Source: Eimeria praecox (Eukaryota). From it: 42,442 nt of DNA. The DNA is taken from the NCBI GenBank assembly GCA_963920595.1, contig OY986947.1:6510001-6552442 (forward strand), written 5' to 3'. The notes under the pieces were generated by a model. It was not told the origin of the DNA, made no database searches, and saw nothing but the letters and a program-made list of their open reading frames with translations. Positions 1 to 42,442 of this stretch are shown one piece after another (position 1 is the stretch's first letter; the number at the start of each line of letters is the position of its first letter). The position numbers and the translations under genes are program-made.

Positions 1-174
1 GGCAATACTTTGAGGATGCGTTTTGGGGTGGGATCTGCATAGCGTCGGGATTGGATTCCAGGACATTTGATGAGTGGTTGTGCTGCATGGGGTAGCGTTG
101 GTGGGTCTGCGGCGGCGCTTTAGCGTAGGTGACCTGAGTAGGAAGCGCCTGACAGTAGCCTCCAGCGTGTTTGC

Positions 175-187
175 GTGTGTGTGTGTG
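175..187. repeat. Short (GT)n microsatellite in each array A unit, length-variable
   Basis: gcgtgtgtgtgtgtggag; one dinucleotide shorter near 6500 and 8612. Confidence 0.8.
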
Positions 188-207
188 GAGTATTCACTAT
201 TCACCAG

Positions 208-10900: not shown

Positions 10901-13900
10901 AGCGTGCAGTTGGAGTGCGATGCAGGTTGCATTGTTGCAGCCCGAGAGGGAAGCATGAGTTGCAATTGAACAGGCTTGTGTGCATCAGGAAGTGCGTTTG
11001 TCCCTTAGATTGGGGAGGATGCGTGGTGTTCGTGGTGTGCGTATCGGCATTTGGGATGCTGGGCGTTTCGCAGGGATTAGTTTGTCAGGGACTTTGTTGG
11101 GGTTGAGCGCTGTGAACAAGTTAAGCGACGGCGAGGGCTTGGTTGCTGGTTAGCTTCGTGGGCATTTGCGTGAGCCATTGGATTGGGGTGGTTTGTTGCC
11201 TATGGACCTGTTTCAGAAAGTAAGGATTCTTGGGTGGGTGGAGTGTGGCAGGTGGACGAGAATGTTCCTTGCGTTGTGTGCAAGGCGGGTCTGGATCTAT
11301 GGTAGGGTAAGCATGGCCTGTTGAAGATGTTGACGGACGGCGTCTAGGAGCTGTTGGGCGCATGCGTTTCTATACATCTGGCATGCAGCACACGTTTGGC
11401 TGGTTCCGGATGTAATGTTATGCATTATGGAAGGGATGCGGAGCACTCGAGAAGCAGTGTTCGTTTGTTCACTCTAGCTCGTGTTGAATCATGATGGGCA
11501 TGCAGGGTAGCTCGCCACCATGTCAATGCGTCAGAAAGTAGGCGTCGTGGCCAGCTTGCGCCCATATGCACTGCTGTATAAGTCAGCAGATATGGTCCAA
11601 ACTTGTTTCGTGTTTTCGGGAATGAGTATGAATGCGTTAGAAGGTGGAAAAGGAGGTGAAGCGTCAGGAGCAAGATATCGATACCGTAGGGCCCGAGTGG
11701 TAGTTTCATTGTTGAGGGTTCCGGTTTGCACCTGTGTGGGTTTTGTGGCAGGTGGATTGTGTGGAGGGGTAGCTGCTGCAAAGAGCATATATGGATGTTC
11801 CATGCCGCCGCGGAACAGAAAGTATGCAGAGGGTCGTGGGCTTGCGATGGAACGGAGCGGTGTCTGTGACTGGGTGGCAAGAATCAGTATTTTGTTTAGG
11901 CAGGGGGTGGTCAAGTGAAGTGACTTAATTGTGGATGAGAGGGAGGGGGGGGTGGGGGGGAGGATTGGGACGTTGGTGGCGCATTTGGCAGCATTGGCTT
12001 GTTTCTTTAGTGTGGGGTATGGAGGTGTGAGCAAGGCGTGGGAGAAGGGGAGCATGGTGGTTCAATGCACCAGGAAGTATGTTTGGTTTTTCGTCTGCGT
12101 GGTTATTGGTAGGTGGGGTGGTCAGGTATTTGAGTAGCGGGGCTTGAAGGAGGCGTGTTGCGGAGCACAATGTGTGTGTCTAATCAAGGGCTGCACCTGG
12201 TACCACCGAAAAAATGTTAGCTGGTGTTTTGTCGCTGAATTGTGATATATGATTGAGGCCCAGGAGAGGGTTTATTTGTGTGGCTTATGGAGGGGAGAGC
12301 TCGTACACTGTAGTCGTGAATGCGTTTAACATACCAGGAGGTACGGCCGACTTGCATTTGGCAAAAGAAGGAGTCGGGCGTTGACGCGGTGTAGACATTA
12401 GTGCATTTTACAGTTGGTCTGCAGGATTGCTGAAGTGTGGTTTGTGTGTGAGTGCAGTGAGCGTCAGGGATGATGCGTGTGAGATGGAGGGTACATGTCG
12501 TGCAATGTAGTCGTGAATGGGCTTCACTTATCAGGAAGTGCGTAGGAGGTGGCGTGGTGAATGGTTGGAGGGCCTTGGTGGGCGTTATAGGGTAGTGGTG
12601 TTTCCAGTTAGGTTGCAAGGGCGGTGAAGGGTGGTTTGAATGGCAAAGGCGCCAGAGTGGCAATATTTTGAGGATGCGTTGTGGGGTGGGATCTGCATAG
12701 CGTCGGGAGTGGATACCAGGACATTTGATGAGTGGTTGTGCTGCATGGGGTAGCGTTGGTGGGTCTGCGGCGGCGCTTTAGCGTAGGTGAGCTGAGTAGG
12801 AAGCGCCTGACAGTAGCCTCCAGCGTGTTTGCGTGTGTGTGTGTGGAGTATTCACTATTCACCAGGAGGTACGGCTTATACTGGGGTATAGCCCAAGCAC
12901 GTGTTTATAAGGGATAGTGGGCAGTTTGGGTTTTTGGGTGCGCATGGAGTGGGTTGTGGCGTCACCCTAGGGCTGTCCGCTTCGCAAGATGAGATTCCAT
13001 TGTGTTGGGGATAAGCGTGCAGTTGGAGTGCGATGCAGGTTGCATTGTTGCAGCCCGAGAGGGAAGCATGAGTTGCAATTGAACAGGCTTGTGTGCATCA
13101 GGAAGTGCGTTTGTCCCTTAGATTGGGGAGGATGCGTGGTGTTCGTGGTGTGCGTATCGGCATTTGGGATGCTGGGCGTTTCGCAGGGATTAGTTTGTCA
13201 GGGACTTTGTTGGGGTTGAGCGCTGTGAACAAGTTAAGCGACGGCGAGGGCTTGGTTGCTGGTTAGCTTCGTGGGCATTTGCGTGAGCCATTGGATTGGG
13301 GTGGTTTGTTGCCTATGGACCTGTTTCAGAAAGTAAGGATTCTTGGGTGGGTGGAGTGTGGCAGGTGGACGAGAATGTTCCTTGCGTTGTGTGCAAGGCG
13401 GGTCTGGATCTATGGTAGGGTAAGCATGGCCTGTTGAAGATGTTGACGGACGGCGTCTAGGAGCTGTTGGGCGCATGCGTTTCTATACATCTGGCATGCA
13501 GCACACGTTTGGCTGGTTCCGGATGTAATGTTATGCATTATGGAAGGGATGCGGAGCACTCGAGAAGCAGTGTTCGTTTGTTCACTCTAGCTCGTGTTGA
13601 ATCATGATGGGCATGCAGGGTAGCTCGCCACCATGTCAATGCGTCAGAAAGTAGGCGTCGTGGCCAGCTTGCGCCCATATGCACTGCTGTATAAGTCAGC
13701 AGATATGGTCCAAACTTGTTTCGTGTTTTCGGGAATGAGTATGAATGCGTTAGAAGGTGGAAAAGGAGGTGAAGCGTCAGGAGCAAGATATCGATACCGT
13801 AGGGCCCGAGTGGTAGTTTCATTGTTGAGGGTTCCGGTTTGCACCTGTGTGGTTTTTGTGGCAGGTGGATTGTGTGGAGGGGTAGCTGCTGCAAAGAGCA

Positions 13901-16900
13901 TATATGGATGTTCCATGCCGCCGCGGAACAGAAAGTATGCAGAGGGTCGTGGGCTTGCGATGGAACGGAGCGGTGTCTGTGACTGGGTGGCAAGAATCAG
14001 TATTTTGTTTAGGCAGGGGGTGGTCAAGTGAAGTGACTTAATTGTGGATGAGAGGGAGGGGGGGGTGGGGGGGAGGATTGGGACGTTGGTGGCGCATTTG
14101 GCAGCATTGGCTTGTTTCTTTAGTGTGGGGTATGGAGGTGTGAGCAAGGCGTGGGAGAAGGGGAGCATGGTGGTTCAATGCACCAGGAAGTATGTTTGGT
14201 TTTTCGTCTGCGTGGTTATTGGTAGGTGGGGTGGTCAGGTATTTGAGTAGCGGGGCTTGAAGGAGGCGTGTTGCGGAGCACAATGTGTGTGTCTAATCAA
14301 GGGCTGCACCTGGTACCACCGAAAAAATGTTAGCTGGTGTTTTGTCGCTGAATTGTGATATATGATTGAGGCCCAGGAGAGGGTTTATTTGTGTGGCTTA
14401 TGGAGGGGAGAGCTCGTACACTGTAGTCGTGAATGCGTTTAACATACCAGGAGGTACGGCCGACTTGCATTTGGCAAAAGAAGGAGTCGGGCGTTGACGC
14501 GGTGTAGACATTAGTGCATTTTACAGTTGGTCTGCAGGATTGCTGAAGTGTGGTTTGTGTGTGAGTGCAGTGAGCGTCAGGGATGATGCGTGTGAGATGG
14601 AGGGTACATGTCGTGCAATGTAGTCGTGAATGGGCTTCACTTATCAGGAAGTGCGTAGGAGGTGGCGTGGTGAATGGTTGGAGGGCCTTGGTGGGCGTTA
14701 TAGGGTAGTGGTGTTTCCAGTTAGGTTGCAAGGGCGGTGAAGGGTGGTTTGAATGGCAAAGGCGCCAGAGTGGCAATATTTTGAGGATGCGTTTTGGGGT
14801 GGGATCTGCATAGCGTCGGGAGTGGATACCAGGACATTTAATGAGTGCTTGTGCTGCATGGGGTAGCGTTGGTGGGTCTGCGGCGGCGCTTTAGCGTAGG
14901 TGAGCTGAGTAGGAAGCGCCTGACAGTAGCCTCCAGCGTGTTTGCGTGTGTGTGTGTGGAGTATTCACTATTCACCAGGAGGTACGGCTTATACTGGGGT
15001 ATAGCCCAAGCACGTGTTTATAAGGGATAGTGGGCAGTTTGGGTTTTTGGGTGCGCATGGAGTGGGTTGTGGCGTCACCCTAGGGCTCTCCGTTTCGCAA
15101 GATGAGATTCCATTGTGTTGGGGATAAGCGTGCAGTTGGAGTGCGATGCAGGTTGCATTGTTGCAGCCCGAGAGGGAGGCGTGAGTTGCAATTGAACAGG
15201 CTTGTGTGCATCAGAAAGTGCGTTTGTCCCTTAGATTGGGGAGGATGCGTGGTGTGCTTATCGGCATTTGGGATGCTGGGCGTTTCGCAGGGATTAGTTT
15301 GTCAGGGACTTTGTTGGGGTTGAGCGCTGTGAACAAGTTAAGCGACGGCGAGGGCTTGGTTGCTGGTTAGCTTCGTGGGCATTTGCGTGAGCCATTGGAT
15401 TGGGGTGGTTTGTTGCCTATGAACCTGTTTCAGAAAGTAAGGATTCTTGGGTGGGTGGAGTGTGGCAGGTGGACGAGAATGTTCCTTGCGTTGTGTGCAA
15501 GGCGGGTCTGGATCTATGGTAGGCTAAGCATGGCCTGTTGAGGATGTTGACGGACGGCGTCTAGGAGGTGTTGGGCGCATGCGTTTCTATACAGCTGGCA
15601 TGCAGCACACGTTTGGCTGGTTCCGGATGTAATGTTATGCATTAGGGAAGGGATGCGGAGCACTCGAGAAGCAGTGTTCGTTTGTTCACTCTAGCTCGTG
15701 TTGAATCATGATGGGCATGCAGGGTAGCTCGCCACCATGTCAATGCGTCAGAAAGTAGGCGTCGTGGCCAGCTTGCGCCCATATGCACTGCTGTATAAGC
15801 CAGCAGATATGGTCGAAACTTGTTTCGTGTTTTCGGGAATGAGTATGAATGCGTTATAAGGTGGAAAAGGAGGTGAAGCGTCAGGAGCAAGATATCGATA
15901 CCGTAGGGCCCGAGTGCTAGTTTCATTGTTGAGGGTTCCGGTTTGCACCTGTGTGGGTTTTGTGGCAGGTGGATTGTGTGGAGGGGTAGCTGCTGCAAAG
16001 AGCATATATGGATGTTCCATGCCGCCGCGGAACAGAAAGTATGCAGAGGGTTGTGGGCTTGCGATGGAACAGAGCGGTGTGTGTGACTGGGTGGCAAGAA
16101 TCAGTATTTTGTTTATGCAGGGGGTGGTCAAATGAAGTGACTTAATTGTGGATGAGAGGGAGGGGGGGGTGGGGGGGAGGATTGGGACGTTGGTGGTGCA
16201 TTTGGCAGCATTGGTTTGTTTCTTTAGTGTGGGGTATGGAGGTGTGACCAATGCGTGGGAGAAGGGGAGCATGGTGGTTCAATGCACCAGGAAGTATGTT
16301 TGGTTTTTCGTCTGCGTGGTTATTGGTAGGTGGGGTGGTCAGGTATTTGAGTATCGGGGCTTGAAGGAGGCGTGTTGCGGAGCACAATGTGTGTGTCTAA
16401 TCAAGGGCTGCACCTGGTACCACCGAAAAAATGTTAGCTGGTGTTTTGTCGCTGAATTGTGTTATATGATTGAGGCCCAGGATAGGGTTTATTTGTGTGG
16501 CTTATGGAGGGGAGAGCTCGTACACTGTAGTCGTGAATGCGTTTAACATACCAGGAGGTACGGTCGACCTGCATTTGGCAAAAGAAGGAGTCGGGCGTTG
16601 ACGCGGTGTAGACATTAGTGCATTTTACAGTTGGTTTGCAGGATTGCTGAAGTGTGGTTTGTGTGTGAGTGCAGTGAGCGTCAGGGATGATGCGTGTGAG
16701 ATGGAGGGTACATGTCGTGCAATGTAGTCGTGAATGGGCTTCACTTATCAGGAAGTGCGTAGGAGGTGGCGTGGTGAATGGTTGGAGGGCCTTGGTGGGC
16801 GTTATAGGGTAGTGGTGTTTCCAGTTAGGTTGCAAGGGCGGTGAAGGGTGGTTTGAATGGCAAAGGCGCCAGAGTGGCAATATTTTGAGGATGCGTTGTG

Positions 16901-19900
16901 GGGTGGGATCTGCATAGCGTCGGGAGTGGATACCAGGACATTTGATGAGTGGTTGTGCTGCATGGGGTAGCGTTGGTGGGTCTGCGGCGGCGCTTTAGCG
17001 TAGGTGACCTGAGTAGGAAGCGCCTGACAGTAGCCTCCAGCGTGTTTGCGTGTGTGTGTGTGGAGTATTCACTATTCACCAGGAGGTACGGCTTATACTG
17101 GGGTATAGCCCAAGCACGTGTTTATAAGGGATAGTGGGCAGTTTGGGTTTTTGGGTGCGCATGGAGTGGGTTGTGGCGTTACCCTAGGGCTCTCCGTTTC
17201 GCAAGATGAGATTCCATTGTGTTGGGGATAAGCGTGCAGTTGGAGTGCGATGCAGGTTGCATTGTTGCAGCCCGAGAGGGAGGCGTGATTTGCAATTGAA
17301 CAGGCTTGTGTGCATCAGAAAGTGCGTTTGTCCCTTAGATTGGGGAGGATGCGTGGTGTGCTTATCGGCATTTGGGATGTTGGGCGTTTCGCAGGGATTA
17401 GTTTGTCAGGGACTGTGTTGGGGTTGAGCGCTGTGAACAAGTTAAGCGACGGCGAAGGCTTGGTTGCTGGTTAGCTTCGTGGGCATTTGTGTGAGCCATT
17501 GGATTGGGGTGGTTTGTTGCCTATGGACCTGTTTCAGAAAGTATGGATTCTTGGGTGGGTGGAGTGTGGCAGGTGGACGAGAATGTTCCTTGCGTTGTGT
17601 GCAAGGCGGGTCTGGATCTATGGTAGGCTAAGCATGGCCTGTTGAGGATGTTGACGGACGGCGTCTAGGAGGTGTTGGGCGCATGCGTTTCTATACAGCT
17701 GAGGTGTAGGGCGCATGCGTTTCTATACAGCTGGCATGCAGCACACTTTTTGCTGGTTCCGGATGTAATGTTATGCATTAGGGGAGGGATGCGGAGCACT
17801 CGAGAAGCAGTGTTCGTTGTTCACTCTAGCTCGTGTTGAATCATGATGGGCATGCAGGGTAGCTCGCCACCATGTCAATGCGTCAGAAAGTAGGCGTCGT
17901 GGCCAGCTTGCGCCCATATGCACTGCTGTATAAGTCAGCAGATATGGTCGAAACTTGTTTCGTGTTTTCGGGAATGAGTATGAATGCGTTATAAGGTGGA
18001 AAAGGAGGTGAAGCGTCAGGAGCAAGATATCGATACCGTAGGGCTCGAGTGCTAGTTTCATTGTTGAGGGTTCCGGTTTGCACCTGTGTGGGTTTTGTGG
18101 CAGGTGGATTGTGTGGAGGGGTAGCTGCTGCAGAGAGCATATATGGATGTTCCATGCCGCCGCGGAACAGAAAGTATGCAGAGGGTCGTGGGCTTGCGAT
18201 GGAACGGAGCGGTGTCAGTGACTGGGTGGCAAGAATCAGTATTTTGTTTATGCAGGGGGTGGTCAAATGAAGTGACTTAATTGTGGATGAGAGGGAGGGG
18301 GGGGTGGGGGGGAGGATTGGGACGTTTGTGGTGCATTTGGCAGCATTGGTTTGTTTCTTTAGTGTGGGGTATGGAGGTGTGAGCAAGGCGTGGGAGAAGG
18401 GGAGCATGGTGGTTCAATGCACCAGGAAGTATGTTTGGTTTTTCGTCTGCGTGGTTATTGGTAGGTGGGGTGGTCAGGTATTTGAGTAGCGGGGCTTGAA
18501 GGAGGCGTGTTGCGGAGCACAATGTGTGTGTCTAATCAAGGGCTGCACCTGGTACCACCGAAAAAATGTTAGCTGGTGTTTTGTCGCTGAATTGTGATAT
18601 ATGATTGAGGCCCAGGAGAGGGTTTATTTGTGTGGCTTATGGAGGGGAGAGCTCGTACACTGTAGTCGTGAATGCGTTTAACATACCAGGAGGTACGGTC
18701 GACCTGCATTTGGCAAAAGAAGGAGTCGGGCGTTGACGCGGTGTAGACATTAGTGCATTTTACAGTTGGTCTGCAGGATTGCTGAAGTGTGGTTTGTGTG
18801 TGAGTGCAGTGAGCGTCAGGGATGATGCGTGTGAGATGGAGGGTACATGTCGTGCAATGTAGTCGTGAATGGGCTTCACTTATCAGGAAGTGCGTAGCAG
18901 GTGGCGTGGTGAATGGTTGGAGGGCCTTGGTGGGCGTTATAGGGTAGTGGTGTTTCCAGTTAGGTTGCAAGGGCGGTGAAGGGTGGTTTGAATGGCAAAG
19001 GCGCCAGAGTGGCAATATTTTGAGGATGCGTTTTGGGGTGGGATCTGCATAGCGTCGGGAGTGGCTACCAGGACATTTGATGAGTGGTTGTGCTGCATGG
19101 GGTAGCGTTGGTGGGTCTGCGGCGGCGCTTTAGCGTAGGTGACCTGAGTAGGAAGCGCCTGACAGTAGCCTCCAGCGTGTTTGCGTGTGTGTGTGTGGAG
19201 TATTCACTATTCACCAGGAGGTACGGCTTATACTGGGGTATAGCCCAAGCACGTGTTTATAAGGGATAGTGGGCAGTTTGGGTTTTTGGGTGCGCATGGA
19301 GTGGGTTGTGGCGTCACCCTAGGGCTCTCCGTTTCGCAAGATGAGATTCCGTTGTGTTGGGGATAAGCGTGCAGTTGGAGTGCGATGCAGGTTGCATTGT
19401 TGCAGCCCGAGAGGGAGGCGTGAGTTGCAATTGAACAGGCTTGTGTGCATCAGAAAGTGCGTTTGTCCCTTAGATTGGGGAGGATGCGTGGTGTGCTTAT
19501 CGGCATTTGGGATGCTGGGCGTTTCGCAGGGATTAGTTTGTCAGGGACTTTGTTGGGGTTGAGCGCTGTGAACAAGTTAAGCGACGGCGAGGGCGTGGTT
19601 GCTGGTTAGCTTCGTGGGCATTTGCGTGAGCCATTGGATTGGGGTGGTTTGTTGCCTATGGACCTGTTTCAGAAAGTAAGGATTCTTGGGTGGGTGGAGT
19701 GTGGCAGGTGGACGAGAATGTTCCTTGCGTTGTGTGCAAGGCGGGTCTGGATCTATGGTAGGGTAAGCATGGCCTGTTGAAGATGTTGACGGACAGCGTC
19801 TAGGAGCTGTTGGGCGCATGCGTTTCTATACATCTGGCATGCAGCACACGTTTGGCTGGTTCCGGATGTAATGTTATGCATTATGGAAGGGATGCGGAGC

Positions 19901-22900
19901 ACTCGAGAAGCAGTGTTCGTTTGTTCACTCTAGCTCGTGTTGAATCATGATGGGCATGCAGGGTAGCTCGCCACCATGTCAATGCGTCAGAAAGTAGGCG
20001 TCGTGGCCAGCTTGCGCCCATATGCGCTGCTGTGTAAGCCAGCAGATATGGTCGAAACTTGTTTCGTGTTTTCGGGAATGAGTATGAATGCGTTATAAGG
20101 TGGAAAAGGAGGTGAAGCGTCAGGAGCAAGATATCGATAACGTAGGGCCCGAGTGCTAGTTTCATTGTTGAGGGTTCCGGTTTGCACCTGTGTGGTTTTT
20201 GTGGCAGGTGGATTGTGTGGAGGGGTAGCTGCTGCAAAGAGCATATATGGATGTACCATGCCGCCGCGGAACAGAAAGTATGCAGAGGGTCGTGGGCTTG
20301 CGATGGAACGGAGCGGTGTCTGTGACTGGGTGGCAAGAATCAGTATTTTGTTTATGCAGGGGGTGGTCAAATGAAGTGACTTAATTGTGGTTGAGAGGGC
20401 GGGGGGGTGGGGGGGAGGATTGGGACGTTGGTGGCGCATTTGGCAGCATTGGCTTGTTTCTTTAGTGTGGGGTATGGAGGTGTGAGCAAGGCGTGGGAGA
20501 AGGGGAGCATGGTGGTTCAATGCACCAGGAAGTATGTTTGGTTTTTCGTCTGCGTGGTTATTGGTAGGTGGGGTGGTCAGGTATTTGAGTAGCGGGGCTT
20601 GAAGGAGGCGTGTTGTGGAGCACAATGTGTGTGTCTAATCAAGGGCTGCACCTGGTACCACCGAAAAAATGTTAGCTGGTGTTTTGTCGCTGAATTGTGA
20701 TATATGATTGAGGCCCAGGAGAGGGTTTATTTGTGTGGCTTATGGAGAGGAGAGCTCGTACACTGTAGTCGTGAATGCGTTTAACATACCAGGAGGTACG
20801 GCCGACTTGCATTTGGCAAAAGAAGGAGTCGGCCGTTGACGTGGTGTAGACATTAGTGCATTTTACAGTTGGTCTGCAGGATTGCTGAAGTGTGGTTTGT
20901 GTGTGAGTGCAGTGAGCGTCAGGGATGATGCGTGTGAGATGGAGGGTACATGTCGTGCAATGTAGTCGTGAATGGGCTTCACTTATCAGGACGTGCGTAG
21001 CAGGTGGCGTGGCGAATGGCTGGAGGGCCTTGGTGGGCGTTATAGGGTAGTGGTGTTTCCAGTTAGGCTGTAAGGGCGGTGAAGGGTGGTTTGAATGGCA
21101 AAGGCGCCAGAGTGGCAATATTTTGAGGATGCGTTTTGGGGTGGGATCTGCATAGCGTCTGGAGCGGATTCCAGGACATTTGATGAGTGCTTATGCTGCA
21201 TGTGGATTTGGGTGGGTGTTGGCTACGGATATGTGGGTGGTTGATGAATGTGGCGGAAGCAAACGGAATGTGGACAATACGGCAACATACGGCGGAAGGT
21301 GCCGAGTTTCCAGTTGTACTGGCTGGACGAAGGTTGACTGCATTTGATGTGTGCAAGACATGTGATGTTCGTGGGCGCGCATTATTTCTGAAAGCCGTGA
21401 AGTTTGTATCACCTGTAGCCGCCGTTAGACACTAATTAAAAAAAAAGTCGCAAATAAGCTGGAACTGCGTTTGCCGTACAATCATTATGCCTCGCGGGAA
21501 TAGCAGGTGCCACTCGCGCTTACGTCTGTGCACCGGTAATGCCACGAAACAGCAAGTACGCTTGAATTCCCGACGACTCACGCCTGCTCAAATTCGGACT
21601 GTAGTGGACGGATGGAGGGCTTCTAGTTGGCACGAGTTAATGCCGGCATGAGCCTAGAGTAATAGGTGAGAGGAACGGCAACGGACCAGGCGAAGCTTGC
21701 TTACGTGAGTGCAAACGCGATGCATAGCACGGCTGCGAAGCATGTGGGCATTGTATTTGCGCCGCATGAATCCGACAGCATCGCTGACTTGGAAACGTTC
21801 TTTACACAGCGGTTTTGACGGTCTCTGAGTGCGCAAGGCTGCAGGGCACGAGCTCCTCCAGCATGTGGAAGTAATGCTTACAGCGAATTAGCAAGGCGTT
21901 AGGGTCTATCAAGGTCATGCAGGACGCGCCGCAGCTGGCAGATTGGACATGTTCGGCGAGCTGGCGATTCGTACTAGTTTCGACCAGCCGGCGTTGCTCT
22001 TCGTCGTTGTATGGCGTCCGTGTAATTGGAAAATGGCGTTAGGCAACGAGTTCAGAAAAAACAAGTGGGACCGAAAAGGGGTGCCAAGGACGAGCAACGG
22101 ATTGGGGAATTGGTGCGCGGCGATGCGCCGAAACAGACCAGTTTGAAGAGATTTGAGGCAAGCATTAGTGAGTTGGGGAGTACTTGGCTGTTTGTCGAAA
22201 CGCGCAACTGAGAACCGCATGGCTTCAGGCTTTCGATGAATCAGGGGGTATGTGTTGCCTGCAAAATGACTACAAAAGCGATTGCCTGTCACGCGATGCT
22301 TTAGATTAGGTGTGCTGTTATGCGAAAGCCTGTTTGGTCATGAAGTATGAAAGAAGCCCCCTACGCGTACAGGCGTATTAGGCGCACTTACTTGAAGATT
22401 GTGCTTTTTTGGACACCGCTTCCACCGTCAATCGGGCGGCAGTTTGTGCAAACTAACGACTTTCGGTTAACAAATGAGGGTGCAGTTACTCCGGTCTGGA
22501 GGCGGGATGCGAATCAGGATGCTTTATCGCTCGCAGGCATGCGCATGTATTAGAAGCATCCCATGCACTTCACTGCCGTAATAGTGCTTGCTTGAAACGT
22601 TATATACTTTCAAGAGAGTCTGAAATGGCCCAGGCTGTGCGTTTGATCTCTGGAAATGAATTACACTCGCAGAGTGCAGACTGACAGCAGCCTACCGATA
22701 TGCTTGCACCCTTGTCCCTTAGAGCAATTTGAGCATATCAATACGTTTCTCCGCGCACCTGACACGACGCCTGTTTATTTGTCAAATTCGAAAAATGGCA
22801 CTTGCTTCCTGCGGCCTCCGATCTTCATTCAGTTATTTGATAATGACATGCGTTCAGGTCACAAAGGTATAGTTTAGGAGTGAAGGGCTGGACGAGGTTG

Positions 22901-25900
22901 CGACGGAAATGTATGTCACACAACAGGCGGTAGGTTGATTTACAGATCCAGGACACGAATGGACTGCAAATGAAAGTAAAGCGGGGGCTACAGGGCAGAG
23001 CGGCCTCTAGTACTGGAGAGCGCGTGCCACAAGGTGGCTCTCGCTGTTCAGCAATGGAATATGTTTCGCAGCACCCGGGCACGAGGCTCTTCGGTATGTT
23101 TCGCACTTCACTCGCTGGAGCTGGCGCGATATAGATCATAAAGATGCCTTTGACATACAGAAGACGTTTGACATTCCAGGCAGTACGTCTGCTTTTCGGA
23201 AACTGCAGTACGCTCATAAACCAGCGGAACCAGCGAAGCATCCACCGTACTGTAGCTTGTCGTCTTTGCGCATGATCACATGCCAAGTGTACCGCATGCT
23301 TCTCGAGGCTGCCTCATTGGTAATGCACACCGGCTCCACGTTAGTCAAGCAAATCTCTTTGATGCACATAAGAACTGTTGAAGCCTTCGTAGAGCGCAGG
23401 GGTGTGTGCGAGACGCTAATGAAGAGCAAGAACCGACTTGCCATATGGCAAAACGGGAAAGGGAACAAGTCCAATTTGGGGAAGATTTAACGTGCCCAGG
23501 TTTTGACCTGAAGGTAATGAACCGTTCTACATGTTTCACCAAGTATGCAAGCCCACTAATGCCGAATGAGCGTGCTGTGGCACAGTGTAAGTACGCGTTT
23601 ATGGGCAAGCAATGCCGCTTATTTAAGACTGCTGTGCCTGGGTAAACAGCACATCATTTGGTCGATTTGCCTCCAAGACATGCAAGCCGCTTCTGCAGCG
23701 CGTGCATTTGGCACAAAGGCATGCTACGGTGTGTCAAATGTGAGCAGTAAGAATGCCTTGAGTGCCTTCAGACGAAACCTAGGGACAGCGCATGCCACTC
23801 CGTCTCTCGTTGCTCTGTGCGCACTATTATGCCAGGTTGTAAAAAAGCACAGGGTGGCGTGCAATGTGGCAATGCGTTTCTGTAAAAACACGGAAACGTG
23901 CCATGTGGCGGGCTGCGTAGCTAATAAGCTGTTGTTGACGATTGCGATGAGGGGAGTCTCAGTCGTGGGGTACAGCTGCTAAACGTCAAGCACCGTAGAG
24001 GATGGCATATCGCGTGTTAGCGTAACTGCTCGGCAGCCTACCACGTATGCGGGCGTATGACGCGATTCTTAGACTGGCATGGGCAGAAAGAGCATACCAG
24101 TGCTTGTGTGCCTGCTTTAGCAGTGCGTTTCTAGCATCCCCAAGCAGGACACGCGCAGATTCGCAGTTTAGCTTATATTTGTAAGTCTTTGCGGAATAGT
24201 TTCTCCTCTCATTTTGCATGAAACACTTTGCTTTGGATGCTGGAGGGCTGTAAAATCTGAAGAAAAGCATCGGGAGACGCACTGCTCTACCCGATCCCAC
24301 AGACCTCTGTACTCTACGGTAGAGGGATACGTCTACTGGATGCCTCAGAGACAACGCTGCGTCTCACCTAACATGGAGGGCGAGTCTCTGCTCACCTTAA
24401 CTGCCTGGGCCGACTAAGCACGACGGGTAATCAAGCAAAGCCACGGAGGTTCATCCATGCAGTGGGCTGCTTTTCAGTTTCCCCCAAATTCGCCATTTTG
24501 CTGTCGTGTCAGCCAGTGCGTGTGGCCCGATTCTCGGCTTATATGCTAGAGACGCCCCTTAATTGTGGAAGCAGCGAGACTGGTCTGTAGATCCAAATGC
24601 ACCTCTCTGCCATGCGTTTGAAACGCTGTTTAGCTTTGTGCCTGCGCTATAGCTCGGCTGAGGTCTGTATGGCCCATCATGCAGGTACCACACTAACCCA
24701 TTCTGCCCAACTTCGTGGAAGCAAAATAGGTGCTGCTAAGGAGTGACTGCACACGTCTAATCTCCTTTACGGTCTTTGTGAGAAAAGGCTCAGTAATAAG
24801 ACGTTCTCACCTCCGTTGGTGAGGCTGCTCACTGAGAGCCGGCACGCTCATTAGCGACAGACGCCTTAACGGGCGATTTGTGCAGGCCCCGTATGCGCTA
24901 ATATTGGAAATGTCTGTCTTGACTTGCGGTTGGCCCTTTCGCGGCTAGCGCAGAAAAGTGTAGTGAAATTAGGCTGCGCATTACTGTTGACTGCGGCATC
25001 TGTTTCTTGCTTGCATGCTGCTTAGTGGAGGCACCTGAGGCTACACGGATTAATGCTTACCGGCTTGGAGTAGGAGGCATGGCAGAAGGAGAGCACAGCA
25101 ACTTAAAGCATTGAGCGGGCATGGAGCTACCGTGATATTGATCAAATTAAATTGCAGGAAAGCCGCAGGAAAAAGCGACTGTACGAGACAACTCATTGCA
25201 CTATGCTTGCAATGAAGGGATTCGGTAGTGCGCGCTGCCCTTCTTTGCCACTGGCATCGATGGCAGCAGCCTAGCATTGCTGTGGCATGCATTTACTTTA
25301 CGGCTGTGCTAGCTAGTGCTCGTGACGTGTGTGATTTGTTCGTACGTGATGCCTCCAGCTCAGTGCCGCGATAGCCCCCACTTGGCCACCCGCCGCACGG
25401 TTCAGGCATGCATACTTTGTTGAGAAATACGAAGCACGCGTATGTCTCAGAAGCGTGCACACAGGCTTGTAGTAGGTGCCAGTCACACCGCTGTGGGCCT
25501 TACCATAGGATGGTTATTGATGTGAAGGCTTAAGCAGGAGTGTTGTAGACACCTAGATTGGTTGTTTTGAGGTGGAGAACTTTCGTGGTTACGTTATGCC
25601 CGTTAATATCTCAGCATCGGCCTTACAGTGTGCATGGCATATGCAATGATTAAACCTAAAGTGCCTTTTCGGTAAGCCAAGCTTACTGAACTTGACAGAT
25701 ACCGCTCACACAATAATGCTGGAATTATTGGACGTCTCGTTGAGCTAAACCCACCGTTTTTCATAGGCCGAAAATTCATGATATAGCGTTATGGAGAGCG
25801 TTTCACTATGAATTTGGGTTTCGCGGTTTTCAGGCTGCTTGGAAGAATATACGCATCTTATAAAACTGATATATACAGCGCGCGGCAAAGCAAACGAGCT

Positions 25901-28900
25901 AATATTGATCTCTGCGCGTTTCTTACCTTTGGTAGGAACAGCTTGTATGTCTGTGTAACGTGGCGCCAATCACGCTGCGGGCGGCAAGCCGAAAGCCGCT
26001 GCTGTTTGCATTGTTTATTGGAGTAACCTATGAGAAAGGATACATACTCTCTGCGCATCAGTACAGCGGAAGCACATGAGCCCTGGGAATTTGACGGACA
26101 GAAGCTGGGCCAGCTAGCAGAGCATGTAGAGCGGAGCACTTATTTGAATCAGAAAGTACGACGGATCAGTTCTGTATTTATATGGAAGAACGAATGCAGG
26201 CTTTCTATTCATTTGTTTCGCCGGTAGATGAGCCCAAATACGCCGCGCTGGTGATGCAAACAATACTGGAACTACCCTTGTTGCGGGCATAGGAGCGCTC
26301 TGTAGATATTTTTACTGTGTGTACTTGATGCGTTAGCATGCAAAGCAGACGTTGTAGCATGCACCGGCACCAATTTTACTGCTCCCGCATCGCCACGATA
26401 TCTCGTTGCCTGCTCCACAGAGAGTGCGCGTGGATGCAATGCATCATCATTAATTGTAAAGATATGCTCATATTGGAAAGGCTGCATAAATGGTGCACTT
26501 GCCATTTTCCTTCTATGCTTTTGACCCCGGCATGCGACGTATATAGCTGCAATATCAGAAAGCTTCTGGAGAAGCAACTATTTGCGGTTATTGCCACATG
26601 AGGTACATTTGTAGCCTTGAGCTTCAGGATGCGCCTCGGGCGATAGTTGTTGGATAAGAGAGGTTTGCGTTGTGCGTATAGAGCAGATACTTCGTATATC
26701 AGGTTGACGAGCGGTTGAAACGGGCACTTGGAATTTTAGAATGTGTAAAAAACAGTAACGCTGGATTTGACCCAGGTCTTGGAGATTAAACCGTTGCGCA
26801 CCTGATGTGAAACCGTCACGCTTTGAAAACGCTGCTGTGTGAGGCATGGTTTCTAATGTTTTATGCATTTTTCTTACTCAGTGCTTGCATTCGGTTGTAA
26901 GGCTAATATCACTTGCCGCCTTCAGATTAAGTTAAAGGGGGGAGTGTTCACTTTACACATTCTCCGTTTACGGACGGCTTAATGCTTGGCACAGTCCAGC
27001 GCTTCAAGGCGTAGAGAAAACTCGCCAAATGGCGCAAAGCAATCCTTCCATGGAAATGCGTTTCCTTCCAAAGTCCTATACATTTGATATAAATGGGGAT
27101 ACATGCTTAAGCTTCTTTTGGCTTGAAGCAGTGGACAGGGCAAACGAATCGGCTGCGGCCTTATCCTTTATCAGGCCTCGCACATTCGGAGTAAAGATGC
27201 TATGGGTACGCAGTCAATAAGCAATGGCATCGCGAGTGAGCCACAGAAATGTGCGACTCGCCTCGTGGCATTCGGTGCGTTGAGCGCTTGGACAGGGCTT
27301 TCTGCCCCGCCCGTTGCAATCTAGTGCAAGTGTGGATACACGATGAGCTAGTTCTTTGTTTTGTTACACGTTGATAGCCTCAGCGGGGCTCCTTAGTGGA
27401 ACAAGGTTTATTGAGGCTTGCCAACTAGAAAGACGTTTCCTAAGACCGTCCAAGGATCACCTTTCTTGAAATAGACTGTATGATAATTCTTTACCGGTAG
27501 AGCGGCATTGGCTTCTACATGGCTTCGTGATATTCAGAAACTCGCATGCCGCTTCCACCAGGCTTTATAGGAGGGTCAGATCAGTGCGCACGAAAATAGC
27601 ATAATTTCCATGAGCGTGCATCTTGTACTCCTTTGTACAGCCATCATAAGCGCCAGTCTCCGATGAAGAAAGCATGTGGCTTTTTAAACACAAGACACAC
27701 TCATGTGGTGCCGAAGCCTACCGTCACCGCAGTAGTTCACACATCGCTGCGGTCCCTAAGTTACCTTGAAGCCCGTACGTCGGCTTCTAACGGGCGTGCA
27801 GCACGTTAGAAAATGCCGCTAGCATATGAAAGCCAAGGGGAGGGTGGCCTTAGTCCATACCGAACACTACCCGTGCAGCTGTTACGTTCATTTGCTAACC
27901 GCGCAACAGGGGAAACTGCCACGCGCGCCGCCGCTGAGCGACCCCTTACGCATCCAATGCAGGCAGCGATCGTGCTGCATTTCGCTGGCTAACGTAACGT
28001 GAGGGGCTAGACGTCCGCCTTCGCGTCACGCTACTCAATCCACAAACCGTAATATATACTGCGGCAATTGCCCAAGTTGCTGTTTGCAATTTCTCTGTTA
28101 ATGGAAAGACAATTCATGGAGTAAGACAAAACTGAATTGAGCGTTTTGCCGCTTCCGACCTTCGGTATGTTTAGAGTAGAGGCCTGCATGTACAGAGAAA
28201 GAAGACGTCCTCGTACTCAGGATATGGCTCGGCAGCTGATTTATGTTACAACGCGAGCTTTTGCGCGGGTTTGGCAAGTTCAAGCGGTAGAGGCTGTGTG
28301 TAATGCGTATGGTGCTTGGTCGTGGTCGTCGACAAGAGGACTGAACATGCAGCTTGTCTAGGATTACTCGCTGTACAGTGTTGGGCAGGAAGCGCTGATG
28401 CCCTTGAAAAGCCGTCACGTACGTGTTGCGCATCCGCGAATGTCCTGAGAGATGCAAGGCGTGCCATGTTATGCAGAAATTGTGCACTTCACGAGAAGTG
28501 CGCCTTTTCCCCACACCAGAGTGTACGCTGTTTCTATGTTTTGCACCAGCAGATTGAGTTACAGAAACGTACACTGTGGAGGGGTGAGCGCACGCTCTAT
28601 GGGCGTGCATGCCTACATGCTTGTGGCAAGATCGAATGCGGTACAACACTGTGTTCACCATTTGAAAGTTGTTAATAAGAACGTGTTTATGTTGTCCGTG
28701 AATGTGGTCGGAGTGTGTTTGAGGGCTTGGCCGACGTAGAATGCAATTGCCATCCTTGCTCGCGAGGCTTGGGGAAGGGTACACTTGTGCTGCATTAGGT
28801 TGCAGCGTGGACTGAAATGTTTTAGCTATCGCGTTACTCCATTATTGTCCTACAGCTCGTGCGTGCTGTTCTTGTTGATGGGGTGTGTGCAGACACCTGG

Positions 28901-31900
28901 CGAGCAGTATTTGAGCAGCGGCGTCTTGAAGGAGAAGCCAGCGCATGCCTGTTGTTGGTTCCGTCATGTATTTAGTATCGCCTGCGGGATGCTTGATTCA
29001 CTTATTGCAGCACATTACAGGCATGGTGCATCAGTGGGCGTTGAATGCTGTCCGTGTGGGCAGAGGGGAACTGTACGTCTTTCAGCATAAGTACACTGCT
29101 AGCTGCAACAACCGAATATGCAACTAATGCGTGTGGTGAAGAACGACTAGTGTTGTATTGTGTGCCTGGTGCGGCAGGCATTTGCTTGCGTCGCAGAGTG
29201 TGAAAGGTTAGAAGTGGAATTGTGGTATGCGGCAAGGTGGTTTGCTGCACTTTGCTAAGCTTAGTGTGGCTTTTGCTCGGGAGGTGCACATATGATTTAT
29301 GAAATACTACTACGTAAGATAGTGGCTGTGTGGATCTGGGGCTCTTTGTGTTGTGTTGAAGGCTAGGCGTTCGCGGGCTTGGAGATTTGGCAGGAAGCAG
29401 GCGACACGGTGAACAAAGCTCGTTGGTTTTGACAATCGAGTTGGCCTGGAACACTTGGGGCATGTTGTGCCGTTTGTCTGTGTAATTGGATCTATCCCTT
29501 TGCAGGGGAGCAGTCAGCAGCGAAGGCCAGCATAAACGCACAGTGTGTATTGTGCTCCAGGTCAGGGTTGGTATTGCGTGCAGGACAATACGCGAGTACG
29601 TGTTTCACTGGAGTCCCATCAACAGATGCAAAGTGTACCCCGGTCGTGCGTTCGGCGTGTGTTATTGCAGGGCACACAACAATGCGGCTATTTGAGTCAG
29701 AAGGTACGATGCTAGGCCGCGGGTGCAACGATCTCTGCTTGCAGCTTCCTGCACAGCCGTGACTACAAAGGTTGCGGACGCCTGCTTTATTCACATCGAT
29801 AAGGAGCGCAGGGGCCTCAATAGAATAGATTTCGAGTAGCGGGGCTGTTTGTTGAGCTTGCGCACATACCGGAAGCTCTGCTTCCCACCGCTTAGCAAAG
29901 AGCGACAACGCACGAATTGCCGCACCCCCTCAAAACGAAATGCTGGAACATGCTCTACCACAAAGGGAATTTTTGATGCATTCCCGATACGCGTTGCAAA
30001 CGGCGTTCGCCATCTAGATCGCGGCATCATGCCTTCGAAACAGGCGGCATGGGGGCATTAGTGGCGGGGTGGCAGGCCCTTGCTGCCTCTCGCCCCTGGG
30101 GTATCAACTGTGCAGCAGTGGCATGCGTTCAGGTATAGCGTAGCCAACAAGCTTACTACCGCTTATGCACGCGTTTGGCCTCTCATGATTTTAGTTGAGG
30201 CACCTCACGTGCTAGGATTTGTTTGCGGATGTTCACGGCTAACGTGGCAGGTTCGGGGGTGGAGTAGAGGTTGAAAGTGAGCACACCGCGTACCGTAAAT
30301 GAGACTGTCGGAACTGTGTGGCGTTGCTGTTAGCAGTTTCATGGTAGATGGGAAACGAAGTAATGGAGTAAGGCAGCACTCGGCTAGGCATTTTGTCGCT
30401 TTCCGACCTTCGGTATGTTTAGGGTGGAGGTCTGCATGCACAGAGAAGGGGGACGTCTTGGTATTCAGGATGTGGCTCGGCAGCGGTTCTATGTTTAAGG
30501 GCGAGTCTTTGCGCGGGTTTGGCAAGTTCAAGCGGTAGAGGCCGTGTGCAATGCGTATGGTGCTTGGTCGTGGTCGTCGACAAGAGGACTGAACATGCAG
30601 CTTGTCTAGGATTACTCGCTGTACAGTGTTGGGCAGGAAGCGCTGATGCCCTTGAAAAGCCGTCACGTACGTGTTGCGCATCCGCGAATGTCCTGAGAGA
30701 TGCAAGGCGTGCCATGTTATGCAGAAATTGTGCACTTCATGAGAATGGCGCCTTTTCCCCACACCAGAGTGTACGCTGTTTCTATATTTTGCACCAGCAG
30801 ATTGAGTTACAGAAACGTACACTGTGGAGGGGTGAGCGCACGCTCTATGGGCGTGCATGCCTACATGCTTGTGGCAAGATCGAATGCGGTACAACACTGT
30901 GTTCACCATTTGAAAGTTGTTAATAAGAACATGTTTATGTTGTCCATGAATGTGGTCGGAGTGTGTTTGAGGGCTTGGCCGACGTAAAATGCAATTGCCA
31001 TCCTTGCTCGCGAGGCTTGGGGAAGGGTGCACTTGTGCTGCATTAGGTTGCAGCGTGGACTGGAATGTTTTAGCTATCGCGTTACTCCATTATTGTCCTA
31101 CAGCTCGTGCGTGCTGTTCTTGTTGATGGGGTGTGTGCAGACACCTGGCGAGCAGTATTTGAGCAGCGGCGTCTTGAAGGAGAAGCCAGCGCATGCCTGT
31201 TGTTGGTTCCGTCATGTATTTAGTATCGCCTGCGGGATGCTTGATTCACTTATTGCAGCACATTACAGGCATGGTGCATCAGTGGGCGTTGAATGCTGTC
31301 CGTGTGGGCAGAGGGGAACTGTACGTCTTTCAGCATAAGTACACTGCTAGCTGCAACAACCGAATATGCAACTAATGCGTGTGGTGAAGAACGACTAGTG
31401 TTGTATTGTGTGCCTGGTGCGGCAGGCATTTGCTTGCGTCGCAGAGTGTGAAAGGTTAGAAGTGGAATTGTGGTATGCGGCAAGGTGGTTTGCTGCACTT
31501 TGCTAAGCTTAGTGTGGCTTTTGCTCGGGAGGTGCACATATGATTTATGAAATACTACTACGTAAGATAGTGGCTGTGTGGATCTGGGGCTCTTTGTGTT
31601 GTGTTGAAGGCTAGGCGTTCGCGGGCTTGGAGATTTGGCAGGAAGCAGGCGACACGGTGAACAAAGCTCGTTGGTTTTGACAATCGAGTTGGCCTGGAAC
31701 ACTTGGGGCATGTTATGCCGTTTGTCTGTGTAATTGGATCTATCCCTTTGCAGGGGAGCAGTCAGCAGCGAAGGCCAGCATAAACGCACAGTGTGTATTG
31801 TGTTCCAGGTCAGGGTTGGTATTGCGTGCAGGACAATACGCGAGTACGTGTTTCACTGGAGTCCCATCAACAGATGCAAAGTGTACCCCGGTCGTGCGTT

Positions 31901-34900
31901 CGGCGTGTGTTATTGCAGGGCACGCACAACAATGCGGCTATTTGAGTCAGAAGGTACGATGCTAGGCCGCGGGTGCAACGATCTCTGCTTGCAGCTTCCT
32001 GCACAGCCGTGACTACAAAGGTTGCGGACGCCTGCTTTATTCACATCGATAAGGAGCGCAGGGGCCTCAATAGAATAGATTTCGAGTAGCGGGGCTGTTT
32101 GTTGAGCTTGCGCACATACCGGAAGCTCTGCTTCCCACCGCTTAGCAAAGAGCGACAACGCATGAATTGGCGCACCCCCTCAAAACGAAATGCTGGAACA
32201 TGCTCTACCACAAAGGGAATTTTTGATGCATTCCCGATACGCGTTGCAAACGGCGTTCGCCATCTAGATCGCGGCATCATGCCTTCGAAACAGGCAGCAT
32301 GGGGGCATTAGTGGCGGGGTGGCAGGCCCTTGCTGTCTCTGGCCCCTGGGGTATCAACTGTGCAGCAGTGGTATGCGTTCAGGTATAGCGTAGCCAACAA
32401 GCTTACTACCGCTTATGCACGCGTTTGGCCTCTCATGATTTTAGTTGAGGCACCTCACGTGCTAGGATTTGTTTGCGGATGTTCACGGCTAACGTGGCAG
32501 GTTCGGGGGTGGAGTAGAGGTTGAAAGTGAGCACACCGCGTACCGTAAATGAGACTGTCGGAACTGTGTGGCGTTGCTGTTAGCAGTTTCATGGTAGATG
32601 GGAAACGAAGTAATGGAGTAAGGCAGCACTCGGCTAGGCATTTTGTCGCTTCCGACCTTCGGTATGTTTAGGGTGGAGGTCTGCATGCACAGAGAAGGGG
32701 GACGTCTTGGTATTCAGGATGTGGCTCGGCAGCGGTTCTATGTTTAAGGGCGAGTCTTTGCGCGGGTTTGGCAAGTTCAAGCGGTAGAGGCTGTGTGCAA
32801 TGCGTATGGTGCTTGGTCGTGGTCGTCGACAAGAGGGCTGAACATGCAGCGTGTCTAGGATTACTCGCTGTACAGTGTTGGGCAGGAAGCGCTGATGCCC
32901 TTGAAAAGCCGTCACGTACGTGTTGCGCATCCGCGAATGTCCTGAGAGATGCAAGGCGTGCCATGTTATGCAGAAATTGTGCACTTCACGAGAAGTGCGC
33001 CTTTTCCCCACACCAGAGTGTACGCTGTTTCTATGTTTTGCACCAGCAGATTGAGTTACAGAAACGTACACTGTGGAGGGGTGAGCGCACGCTCTATGGG
33101 CGTGCATGCCTACATGCTTGTGGCAAGATCGAATGCGGTACAACACTGTGTTCACCATTTGAAAGTTGTTAATGAGAACGTGTTTATGTTGTCCGTGAAT
33201 GTGGTCGGAGTGTGTTTGAGGGCTTGGCCGACGTAGAATGCAATTGCCATCCTTGCTCGCGAGGCTTGGGGAAGGGTACACTTGTGCTGCATCAGGTTGT
33301 AGCGTGGACTGGAATGTTTTAGCTATCGCGTTACTCCATTATTGTACTACAGCTCGTGCGTGCCGTTCTTGTTGATGGGGTGTGTGCAGACACCTGGCGA
33401 GCACTATTTGGGCGGCGGCGTCTTGAAGGAGCAGCCAGCGCATGCCTGTTGTTGGTTCCGTCATGTATTTAGTATCGCCTGCGGGATGCTTGATTCACTT
33501 ATTGCAGCACATTACAGGCATGGTGCATCAGTGGGCGTTGAATGCTGTCCGTGTGGGCAGAGGGGAACTGTACGTCTTTCAGCATAAGCACACTGCTGGC
33601 TGCAACAACCGAATATGCAACTAATGCGTGTGGTGAAGAACGACTAGCGTTGCATTGTGCGCTTGATGCGGCAGGCATTTGCTTGCGTCGCAGAGTGTGA
33701 AAGGTTACAAGTGGAATTGTGGTATGCGGCAAGGCGGTTTGCTGCACTTTGCTAAGCTTAGTGTGGCTTTTGCTCGGGAGGTGCACATATGATTTATGAA
33801 ATACTACTACGTAAGATAGTGGCTGTGTGGATCTGGGGCTCTTTGTGTTGTGTTGAAGGCTAGGCGTTCGCGGGCTTGGAGATTTGGCAGGAAGCAGGCG
33901 ACACGGTGAACAAAGCTCGTTGGTTTTGACAATCGAGTTGGCCTGGAACACTTGGGGCATGTTGTGCCGTTTGTCTGTGTAAATGGATCTATCCCTTTGC
34001 AGGGGGGCAGTCAGCAGCGAAGGCCAGCATAAACGCACAGTGTGTATTGTGCTCCAGGTCAGGGTTGGTATTGCGTGCAGGACAATACGCGAGTACGTGT
34101 TTCACTGGAGTCCCATCAACAGATGCAAAGTGTACCCCGGTCGTGCGTTCGGCGTGTGTTATTGCAGGGCACGCACAACAATGCGGCTATTTGAGTCAGA
34201 AGGTACGATGCTAGGCCGCGGGTGCAACGATCTCTGCTTGCAGCTTCCTGCACAGCCGTGACTACAAAGGTTGCGGACGCCTGCTTTATTCACATCGATA
34301 AGGAGCGCAGGGGCCTCAATAGAATAGATTTCGAGTAGCGGGGCTGTTTGTTGAGCTTGCGCACATACCGGAAGCTCTGCTTCCCACCGCTTAGCAAAGA
34401 GCGACAACGCATGAATTGGCGCACCCCCTCAAAACGAAATGCTGGAACATGCTCTACCACAAAGGGAATTTTTGATGCATTCCCGATACGCGTTGCAAAC
34501 GGCGTTCGCCATCTAGATCGCGGCATCATGCCTTCGAAACAGGCAGCATGGGGGCATTAGTGGCGGGGTGGCAGGCCCTTGCTGTCTCTCGCCCCTGGGG
34601 TATCAACTGTGCAGCAGTGGTATGCGTTCAGGTATAGCGTAGCCAACAAGCTTACTACCGCTTATGCACGCGTTTGGCCTCTCATGATTTTAGTTGAGGC
34701 ACCTCACGTGCTAGGATTTGTTTGCGGATGTTCACGGCTAACGTGGCAGGTTCGGGGGTGGAGTAGAGGTTGAAAGTGAGCACACCGCGTACCATAAATG
34801 AGACTGTCGGAACTGTGTGGCGTTGCTGTTAGCAGTTTCATGGTAGATGGGAAACGAAGTAATGGAGTAAGGCAGCACTCGGCTAGGCATTTTGTCGCTT

Positions 34901-41916: not shown

Positions 41917-42442
41917 GTGCGTGCTGTTCTTGTTGATGGGGTGTGTGCAGACACCTGGCGAGCACTATTTGGGCGGCGGCGTCTTGAAGGAGCAGCCAGC
42001 GCATGCCTGTTGCCGGTTCCGTCATGTATTTAGTATCGCCTGCGGGATGCTTGATTCACTTATTGCAGCACATTACAGGCATGGTGCATCAGTGGGCGTT
42101 GAATGCTGTCCCTGTGGGCAGAGGGGAACTGTACGTCTTTCAGCATAAGCACACTGCTAGCTGCAACAACCGAATATGCAACTAATGCGTGCGGCGAAGA
42201 ACGACTAGCGTTGCATTGTGCGCTTGATGCGGCAGGCATTTGCTTGCGTCGCAGAGTGTGAAAGGTTAGAAGTGGAATTGCGGTATGCGGCAAGGCGGTT
42301 TGCTGCACTTTGCTAAGCTTAATGTGGCTTTTGCTCGGGAGGTGCACATATGATTTATGAAATACTACTACGTAAGATAGTGGCTGTGTGGATCTGGGGC
42401 TCTTTGTGTTGTGTTGAAGGCTAGGCGTTCGCGGGCTTGGAG

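Follow-up and report, generated by a model that had tools for sequence, protein, structure and literature searches.

Three-base islands in Eimeria praecox DNA as candidate one-codon exons of a single gene

Introduction

Can a spliceosomal gene be assembled from exons that are each a single codon long? The question is raised by a 42,442-nucleotide stretch of Eimeria praecox DNA (assembly GCA_963920595.1, contig OY986947.1, positions 6,510,001 to 6,552,442 of the forward strand), referred to here in its entirety as the window. A sequence-only reading of this stretch had picked out ten triplets, each enclosed by apparent splice sites, in the single-copy DNA between two tandem arrays. Our analysis finds 110 such three-base islands on the plus strand of the window: 80 in the left array, ten in the single-copy segment and 20 in the right array. 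Along this chain the islands are spaced 197-1429 nt apart (median 268), and the putative exons total 330 bases in 42 kb.

Judging from the DNA, from which splicing, translation and reading phase are all inferred, this is very probably a real gene region with one codon per exon. A more specific account, which we hold with somewhat better than even confidence, makes the ten sites the middle of a chain of 110 one-codon exons in a single spliceosomal gene. Read in phase 0, that chain would encode a Glu4-Lys4 rod, a ten-residue linker and a Ser/Gly-Leu-Lys repeat. The count of 110 admits GTAGG and GTAAG donors and one GTCCG donor; two weak sites, at 24517 and 21067, were dropped from 112.

Ten islands in single-copy DNA

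Self-comparison delimits a single-copy segment between the left and right arrays, which contains the following sites.

21206..28075, plus strand: single-copy segment with ten islands; intron-like spacers of 208-1426 nt with stops in all three frames
21553..21555, plus strand: one-codon exon candidate CAA (Gln, phase 0), between CAG and GTACG; leave-one-out score 17.7
22245..22247, plus strand: one-codon exon candidate GGG (Gly), between CAG and GTATG; score 20.6
22634..22636, plus strand: one-codon exon candidate GCT (Ala), between CAG and GTGCG; score 12.4
22927..22929, plus strand: one-codon exon candidate GCG (Ala), between CAG and GTAGG; score 13.9
23180..23182, plus strand: one-codon exon candidate GCA (Ala), between CAG and GTACG; score 15.8
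24513..24515, plus strand: one-codon exon candidate CCA (Pro), between CAG and GTGCG; score 11.1
24517-24519, plus strand: TGC, a weaker alternative overlapping the CCA site; score 7.4
25942..25944, plus strand: one-codon exon candidate CTT (Leu), between CAG and GTATG; score 10.2
26153..26155, plus strand: one-codon exon candidate AAA (Lys), between CAG and GTACG; score 17.5
26421..26423, plus strand: one-codon exon candidate AGA (Arg), between CAG and GTGCG; score 8.5, the lowest of the ten
27475..27477, plus strand: one-codon exon candidate ACT (Thr), between TAG and GTATG; score 10.9

All ten triplets lie where the sequence-only reading had placed them, each between YAG and GTRYG apart from the GTAGG donor at 22930. 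Its count of nine strict YAG-NNN-GTRYG matches falls one short, as there are ten; the extra match, a TGC at 24517, shares bases with the CCA donor and was set aside as an additional exon for its low score. The chance expectation, put at less than one per ~7 kb, is in fact about one: dinucleotide shuffles of 21200-28100 gave a mean of 1.08 and a maximum of 7 strict matches, and none of 1000 reached the observed ten. Given the actual donor count, 1.5 strict matches would be expected (binomial P 2e-6), and the minus strand of the same interval holds a single match at 3-nt spacing. When spacings of 0-30 nt were compared (31 tested), 3 nt alone stood out, the remaining 30 giving at most five matches each; the five at 5-nt spacing correspond to P 0.009, uncorrected for the 31 tests.

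The single-copy spacers show no convincing mutual similarity (best z 4.3 among pairs) and share just short repeats of 14-23 nt. Nor do they carry terminal inverted repeats, with matches at only 2-8 of 20 terminal positions. Introners and miniature inverted-repeat transposable elements (MITEs) yield introns that are copies of one element, often with such repeats; intron-generating transposons or stacked MITEs were accordingly rejected as a source of these unrelated spacers. Tandem Repeats Finder detected no satellite in the segment, giving a single 32-nt doublet. Enrichment, the mutual dissimilarity of the introns and the held-out acceptor profile described below support the proposal that the sites are one-codon exons independent of repeat amplification. 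One 7106-nt contig of run X1, possibly built from the same data as the assembly, spans 21134-28238 with no mismatches and one gap.

A side observation concerns spacer length. None of the 11 spacers across 20993-28519 is divisible by three, the first four leaving a remainder of 2 and the next seven a remainder of 1. This pattern is absent from the array spacers and is probably due to chance.

A shared splice-signal profile

Collapsing the repeats leaves 21 distinct sites (eight left, ten single-copy, three right). All 21 have G at donor position +5. On the acceptor side, 20 of the 21 have a pyrimidine at -8, 13 have G at -7, 13 have A at -5 and 10 have A at -9; none has G at -4. When a profile of acceptor positions -14 to -4 is learned from just the 11 array sites, the ten single-copy acceptors as a group score higher than 210 other YAGs of the segment (Mann-Whitney P 3.5e-4, permutation P 1.2e-4), even though three of them reach no more than the 52nd-61st percentile. 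Learning from the single-copy sites and scoring the array sites gives P 1e-4. Eight chance matches on the minus strand, representing two distinct sites, have acceptor scores of -3 to -6; in-sample, the scores of the 21 sites run from 5 to 14. This held-out profile is the strongest sign that the islands are functional splice units. Within it, a possible branch point is T-n-A-Y at about -11 to -8, which would lie at an almost constant distance from the AG.

The 110 donors are of the GTRYG type and include no GTGAG. GTRAG donors are typical of animals. A literature search on the GTRYG donor type found no paper. Four donors have TTCG before the GT, but this recurring motif had no consistent acceptor and was dropped.

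Chance, or a DNA motif that has nothing to do with splicing, such as a protein-binding site or stacked mobile-element ends with 3-bp target duplications, is a very improbable source of the islands. Short-period satellites do generate an identical triple pattern in numerous metagenome contigs, and neighbouring triplets are somewhat alike (Hamming sum 16 versus 19.4, P 0.07). A satellite-free segment with unrelated spacers lacking inverted ends argues the other way, as do the shuffles, the restriction to one strand, the prominence of 3-nt spacing alone and the upstream profile that holds on sites outside its training set.

Tandem arrays on either side

The chain continues into both flanking arrays, whose features are as follows.

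1..21205, plus strand: left tandem array, ten units of ~2.11 kb with eight islands each, 80 islands in all; extends past the left end of the window
Left unit, plus strand: islands in the order GAG, AAA or GAA, AAA, AAA, AAA, GAA, GAG, GAA
20990..20992, plus strand: last left-array island, GAC (GAA in the other nine units)
28076..42442, plus strand: right tandem array, unit of ~2.2 kb with three islands, 20 islands in all; extends past the right end of the window
Right unit, plus strand: islands AGT or GGT, CTC, and AAG or GGG; the first at 28520, 28856 and 29701
38526..38563, plus strand: diverged copy of the third right-array island, with CAG kept, GTACG changed to GTGCG and AAG to GGG; flanks ~50-60% alike

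Three triplets, AAA (37), GAA (23) and GAG (20), account for 80 of the 110, and array positions are near-invariant between copies. One left unit has seven strict matches, compared with 0.96 in shuffles and none on its minus strand. Where copies do differ at the splice sites, the changes fall within the consensus (CAG to TAG, GTACG to GTGCG, GTAAG/GTATG), and the triplets vary; in three right-array copies, for example, CAG-AGT has become TAG-GGT. Run X1 compared with one left unit shows 32 variant positions, none of them among 88 exon and core splice positions, for which ~1.3 would be expected (P ~0.27), in a table that overlooked the known AAA/GAA variant. A 99-nt contig of the left unit has a depth of 22558, versus 505.5 for the single-copy contig. 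This ratio is a rough hint of at least 45 left units in the genome, depth being no copy number and some copies possibly lying outside the array.

Duplication of intron plus codon is apparent at three scales: the single cassette, the 3-exon unit and the 8-exon unit. In two adjacent left-array modules the final 110 nt of the intron are shared right up to the exon, whose triplet differs (GAG versus GAA), suggesting that single cassettes duplicated first and the 8- and 3-exon units later. The single-copy part would be the oldest, having lost mutual intron similarity and retained its splice signals.

Two further features of the arrays were recorded. At 38400-38900, the usual segment of one right unit is replaced by a shorter one that has diverged strongly (~50-60% alike), which suggests exchange with an older copy; further upstream of the diverged island, identity is 0.92-0.96. 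On the plus strand of 1-21000 there is a very strong G-over-C skew (0.36-0.51) together with T-over-A skew, near zero in the single-copy part. Skew of this kind over most of the window fits plus-strand transcription.

Reading phase

The ten sites had been thought to fix the reading phase, but they exclude just one of the two other frames. The +2 frame is closed, with the TAA across CTT-AAA present as described, but the +1 frame is open over all 110 triplets. Phase 0 is likewise stop-free across 110 codons, and joining in this phase recovers the previously proposed linker QGAAAPLKRT. The left array in phase 0 gives four-Glu and four-Lys blocks (Glu5-Lys3 in four of ten units) and the right array Ser/Gly-Leu-Lys repeats; in the +1 frame these become exclusively Lys/Arg and Val-Ser-Arg repeats, respectively. 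Phase 0 is favoured mainly because a Glu4-Lys4 helix consensus results, compared with a pure Lys/Arg run in +1. In addition, the members of the GCT/GCG/GCA run differ from one another at position 3, as do GAG and GAA in the old duplicate modules, and such changes are silent only in phase 0. For a chain that is coding at all, we consider phase 0 quite probable.

Single alpha-helices (SAHs) are described in a passage of a preprint as having a consensus of four Glu and four Lys and as forming semiflexible rods of 25-200 residues between domains (bioRxiv 10.1101/2022.09.28.509894). Read in phase 0, on which the match depends, the predicted product of the left array has this di-block consensus. Unlike an SAH of that description, each of its residues would come from its own exon.

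Several observations weigh against the phase-0 chain. The repeat is near-perfect and covers 80 residues in the window, perhaps several hundred overall, compared with the 25-200 which that preprint passage gives for SAHs. Five exon positions have changed among recent copies, every one non-silently in phase 0, and three changes at exon position 1 (AAA/GAA, AGT/GGT, AAG/GGG) are silent in the +1 frame. Either frame places 11-12 consecutive A in the mRNA per left unit, and iterated AAA codons reduce protein output in other systems, according to a section of PMC4363877. Comparison of the ten recent left units reveals no measurable excess of conservation at splice positions over intron-interior columns (2/64 versus 101/2010), and one island copy, at 2557, has a GTCCG donor. 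The right-array sites rest on a count of just three strict matches per unit against 0.70 in shuffles, with one on the minus strand, and the identity peak at the diverged right island is modest (0.76 and 0.68 in two 25-nt bins, against 0.48 and 0.53 beside it). Finally, a 5-nt candidate at 23586-23590 scores 16.2, within the range of true sites, and its use would shift the frame.

The same chain could be read in the +1 frame, with codons split over two exons, to give a very basic, possibly nucleic-acid-binding protein of Lys/Arg and Val-Ser-Arg; we regard this as unlikely. It would require an unbroken run of at least 79 Lys/Arg residues within the window, and probably several hundred in all, and long runs of this kind are expected to stall ribosomes. 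The +1 frame gains from being free of stops along the entire chain and from the silence of all three first-position changes, but the case rests on just five changed positions, and A-to-G at exon position 1 would also improve the acceptor context and so be favourable in any frame. The third-position variation of the Ala run and the GAG/GAA pair tells against it as well. Plant microexon clusters offer it a precedent, being often out of phase 0 (16, 21 and 8 in phases 0, 1 and 2, in a section of PMC8831610).

Search for other exons, genes and transcripts

The phase-0 chain as joined above takes all its exons to be three bases long. The sequence-only reading had suggested that the long gaps at 23183-24512, 24516-25941 and 26424-27474, whose coordinates are correct, may hide further exons. 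Candidates of other lengths nevertheless occur at chance level in the single-copy part: one versus 1.03 expected at 0-12 nt, and six versus 5.95 at 13-90 nt. A real chain whose 1.0-1.4-kb gaps hold weakly marked exons or exons of different length, altering the linker and possibly the downstream frame, is improbable, and the match to shuffled expectation counts against it. It draws on four gaps of 1042-1426 nt, far above the median spacing, and on candidates at 23586, 24121 and 27772. Also against it, the right array has long spacers too, of 842 and 1064 nt, and its own 12-nt candidate loses the CAG in the diverged copy.

Individual candidates were considered in turn. The one at 23586 can also be read as a 1-nt exon with a GTAAG donor, and it shares a single 1330-nt gap with a 2-nt candidate at 24121-24122 (score 11.6); both occur at chance frequency. 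AAG-CCC-GTACGT at 27772 has a top donor, yet a model score of -2.2, and was set aside, as were 9-nt and 12-nt candidates in the right array (scores 3.8 and 2.8). TAG-GCT-GTAAG at 21067-21069 (score 3.3) was likewise set aside; it occurs only in the last left unit, and all other left copies have GTT-GCAAG at this position. This may be an additional exon in the making, or else every unit may have a GC-donor exon here.

In searches for conventional gene features at 19000-31000, all 16 long open frames lacked Pfam matches and Rfam gave nothing. No RNA run was listed as containing 21200-28100; the two runs that do contain it, X1 and X2, come from one sample and are of unrecorded kind. Compared with the window, they contained no GT-AG joints, X2 giving two weak TG-ended skips; they are uninformative on splicing. 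An exact 22-nt left-array probe had no match among metagenome contigs, and blastn of 19001-30400 against 113 metagenome loci with a similar pattern (see below) found no orthologue at E<1e-3.

The absence of a detected start, end or long exon in 42 kb would suit islands that act as splice units within an untranslated region or a non-coding RNA, that belong to a decaying gene, or that serve as stepping-stones for removing a very long intron and leave little in the mRNA. So would the tolerated non-silent changes and the GTCCG donor. We nonetheless judge these possibilities quite improbable: a strict 3-nt length has no evident reason absent translation, and the signals persist after the introns have lost mutual similarity. 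Ratchet recursive splicing in particular is disfavoured, as no triplet begins with GT and zero-length AG/GT sites number one versus 0.86 expected.

Proposed mechanism

In the favoured phase-0 chain, recognition would act across the intron, by purely intronic signals. Introns would be removed one after another because two spliceosomes cannot share a 3-nt exon. Consecutive removal is assumed here after plant microexons, whose two flanking introns are likely removed in this way, as a section of PMC8831610 puts it. Tandem duplication with both breaks in introns would add whole codons and never shift the frame. The protein would therefore be able to lengthen by unequal crossing-over.

The start and end of the gene would lie beyond the window. 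A bolder extension, which we find rather doubtful, is that the chain forms a structural segment spread over at least 100 kb, several hundred residues long and <1% coding, with no ordinary exon between, and that the length and charge of the rod are tuned residue by residue through exon skipping and unit number.

Similar patterns in other DNA

A generic three-island pattern was found in 115 stretches (113 loci) from five of 64 parts of a metagenome collection. These loci were preselected for holding three islands, and most of those inspected are short-period repeats, 13 of the 113 having been viewed site by site. They show recurrence of the layout, as known from DNA alone.

A few loci merit description. 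Two contigs of one assembly, L078 (130-3810, plus strand) and L086 (whole, minus strand), are ~67% alike and have 3-nt islands with varied triplets every 230-280 nt. Their donors are GTACGT, and two intron types, ~67% alike, alternate. Strict matches number 13 in L078 versus 0.29 in shuffles, and five in L086 versus 0.10, making the pair a candidate long-intron, variable-codon array in another eukaryote, in which no host gene was seen. L009 (whole, minus strand) has 11 strict islands versus 0.07 expected, with varied triplets and a spacing of 54-128 nt; its spacers are pyrimidine-rich and near 62-73 nt, and it looks like fungal intron-plus-codon arrays. L089, L090, L081, L025, L030, L015 and others belong to a 64-65-nt repeat family with one CAG-NNN-GTACGG per unit and triplets that are mostly GCY or ACY. 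This family may represent either an ordinary satellite or an array of introns plus codons.

Relation to known microexon genes

Tens of alternatively spliced 3-bp mini-exons are described for Tuber melanosporum nank, a NACHT-ankyrin NLR gene, in passages of PMC4986451, PMC9815663, PMC3689799 and PMC10197012 that cite Iotti et al. 2012. As described there, nank resembles the window in having many consecutive codon-sized exons in one gene, the 110 islands here being known at the DNA level. In those passages its mini-exons diversify the NLR recognition domain by alternative splicing, whereas the codons of the window are few and conserved. The window also differs in having at least 110 islands, with no longer exon detected in 42 kb, and none of the 16 long open frames at 19000-31000 contains an NLR domain, the gene ends lying beyond the window.

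The micro-exon genes (MEGs) of schistosomes offer a second comparison. A section of PMC4350168 describes coding regions that consist mostly of tiny symmetrical exons, whose skipping leaves the frame intact, and products that are secreted or membrane-anchored, with a signal peptide; the genes are apparently confined to flatworms. Very small symmetrical exons likewise dominate in the window, at the DNA level. MEG exons come in several sizes. Every island in the window is 3 nt, with GTRYG donors, unlike MEGs.

Three-nucleotide exons are also spliced singly, as in mouse Ncam and the one-lysine exon of Drosophila troponin T (in a section of PMC8042270). Isolated plant and animal microexons of 1-15 nt sit between ordinary exons in the passages of PMC8831610 and PMC8042270 that treat them, whereas the window shows no ordinary exon. 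No chain of such length that has long unrelated introns, or that codes for a Glu/Lys helix, turned up in a literature search covering few subscription journals and no supplements. The window differs from known arrays in its scale, its long unrelated middle introns, its 8- and 3-exon repeat units and its conserved structural codons.

Outlook

If spliced as proposed, this chain would be an extreme test of the spliceosome, with >100 consecutive joins, three exon bases at each and introns of 200-1400 nt. With joins of this kind, recognition would have to depend on signals within the introns and on a strictly ordered removal of introns. Neither gene finders nor read aligners would see such a gene, and masking would treat it as satellite DNA. 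As genes of this type escape annotation, others may have been missed; similar chains were found in two other metagenome assemblies. Finally, the layout would, if true, offer low-complexity protein rods a direct route to grow, residue by residue or block by block, with no frameshift.

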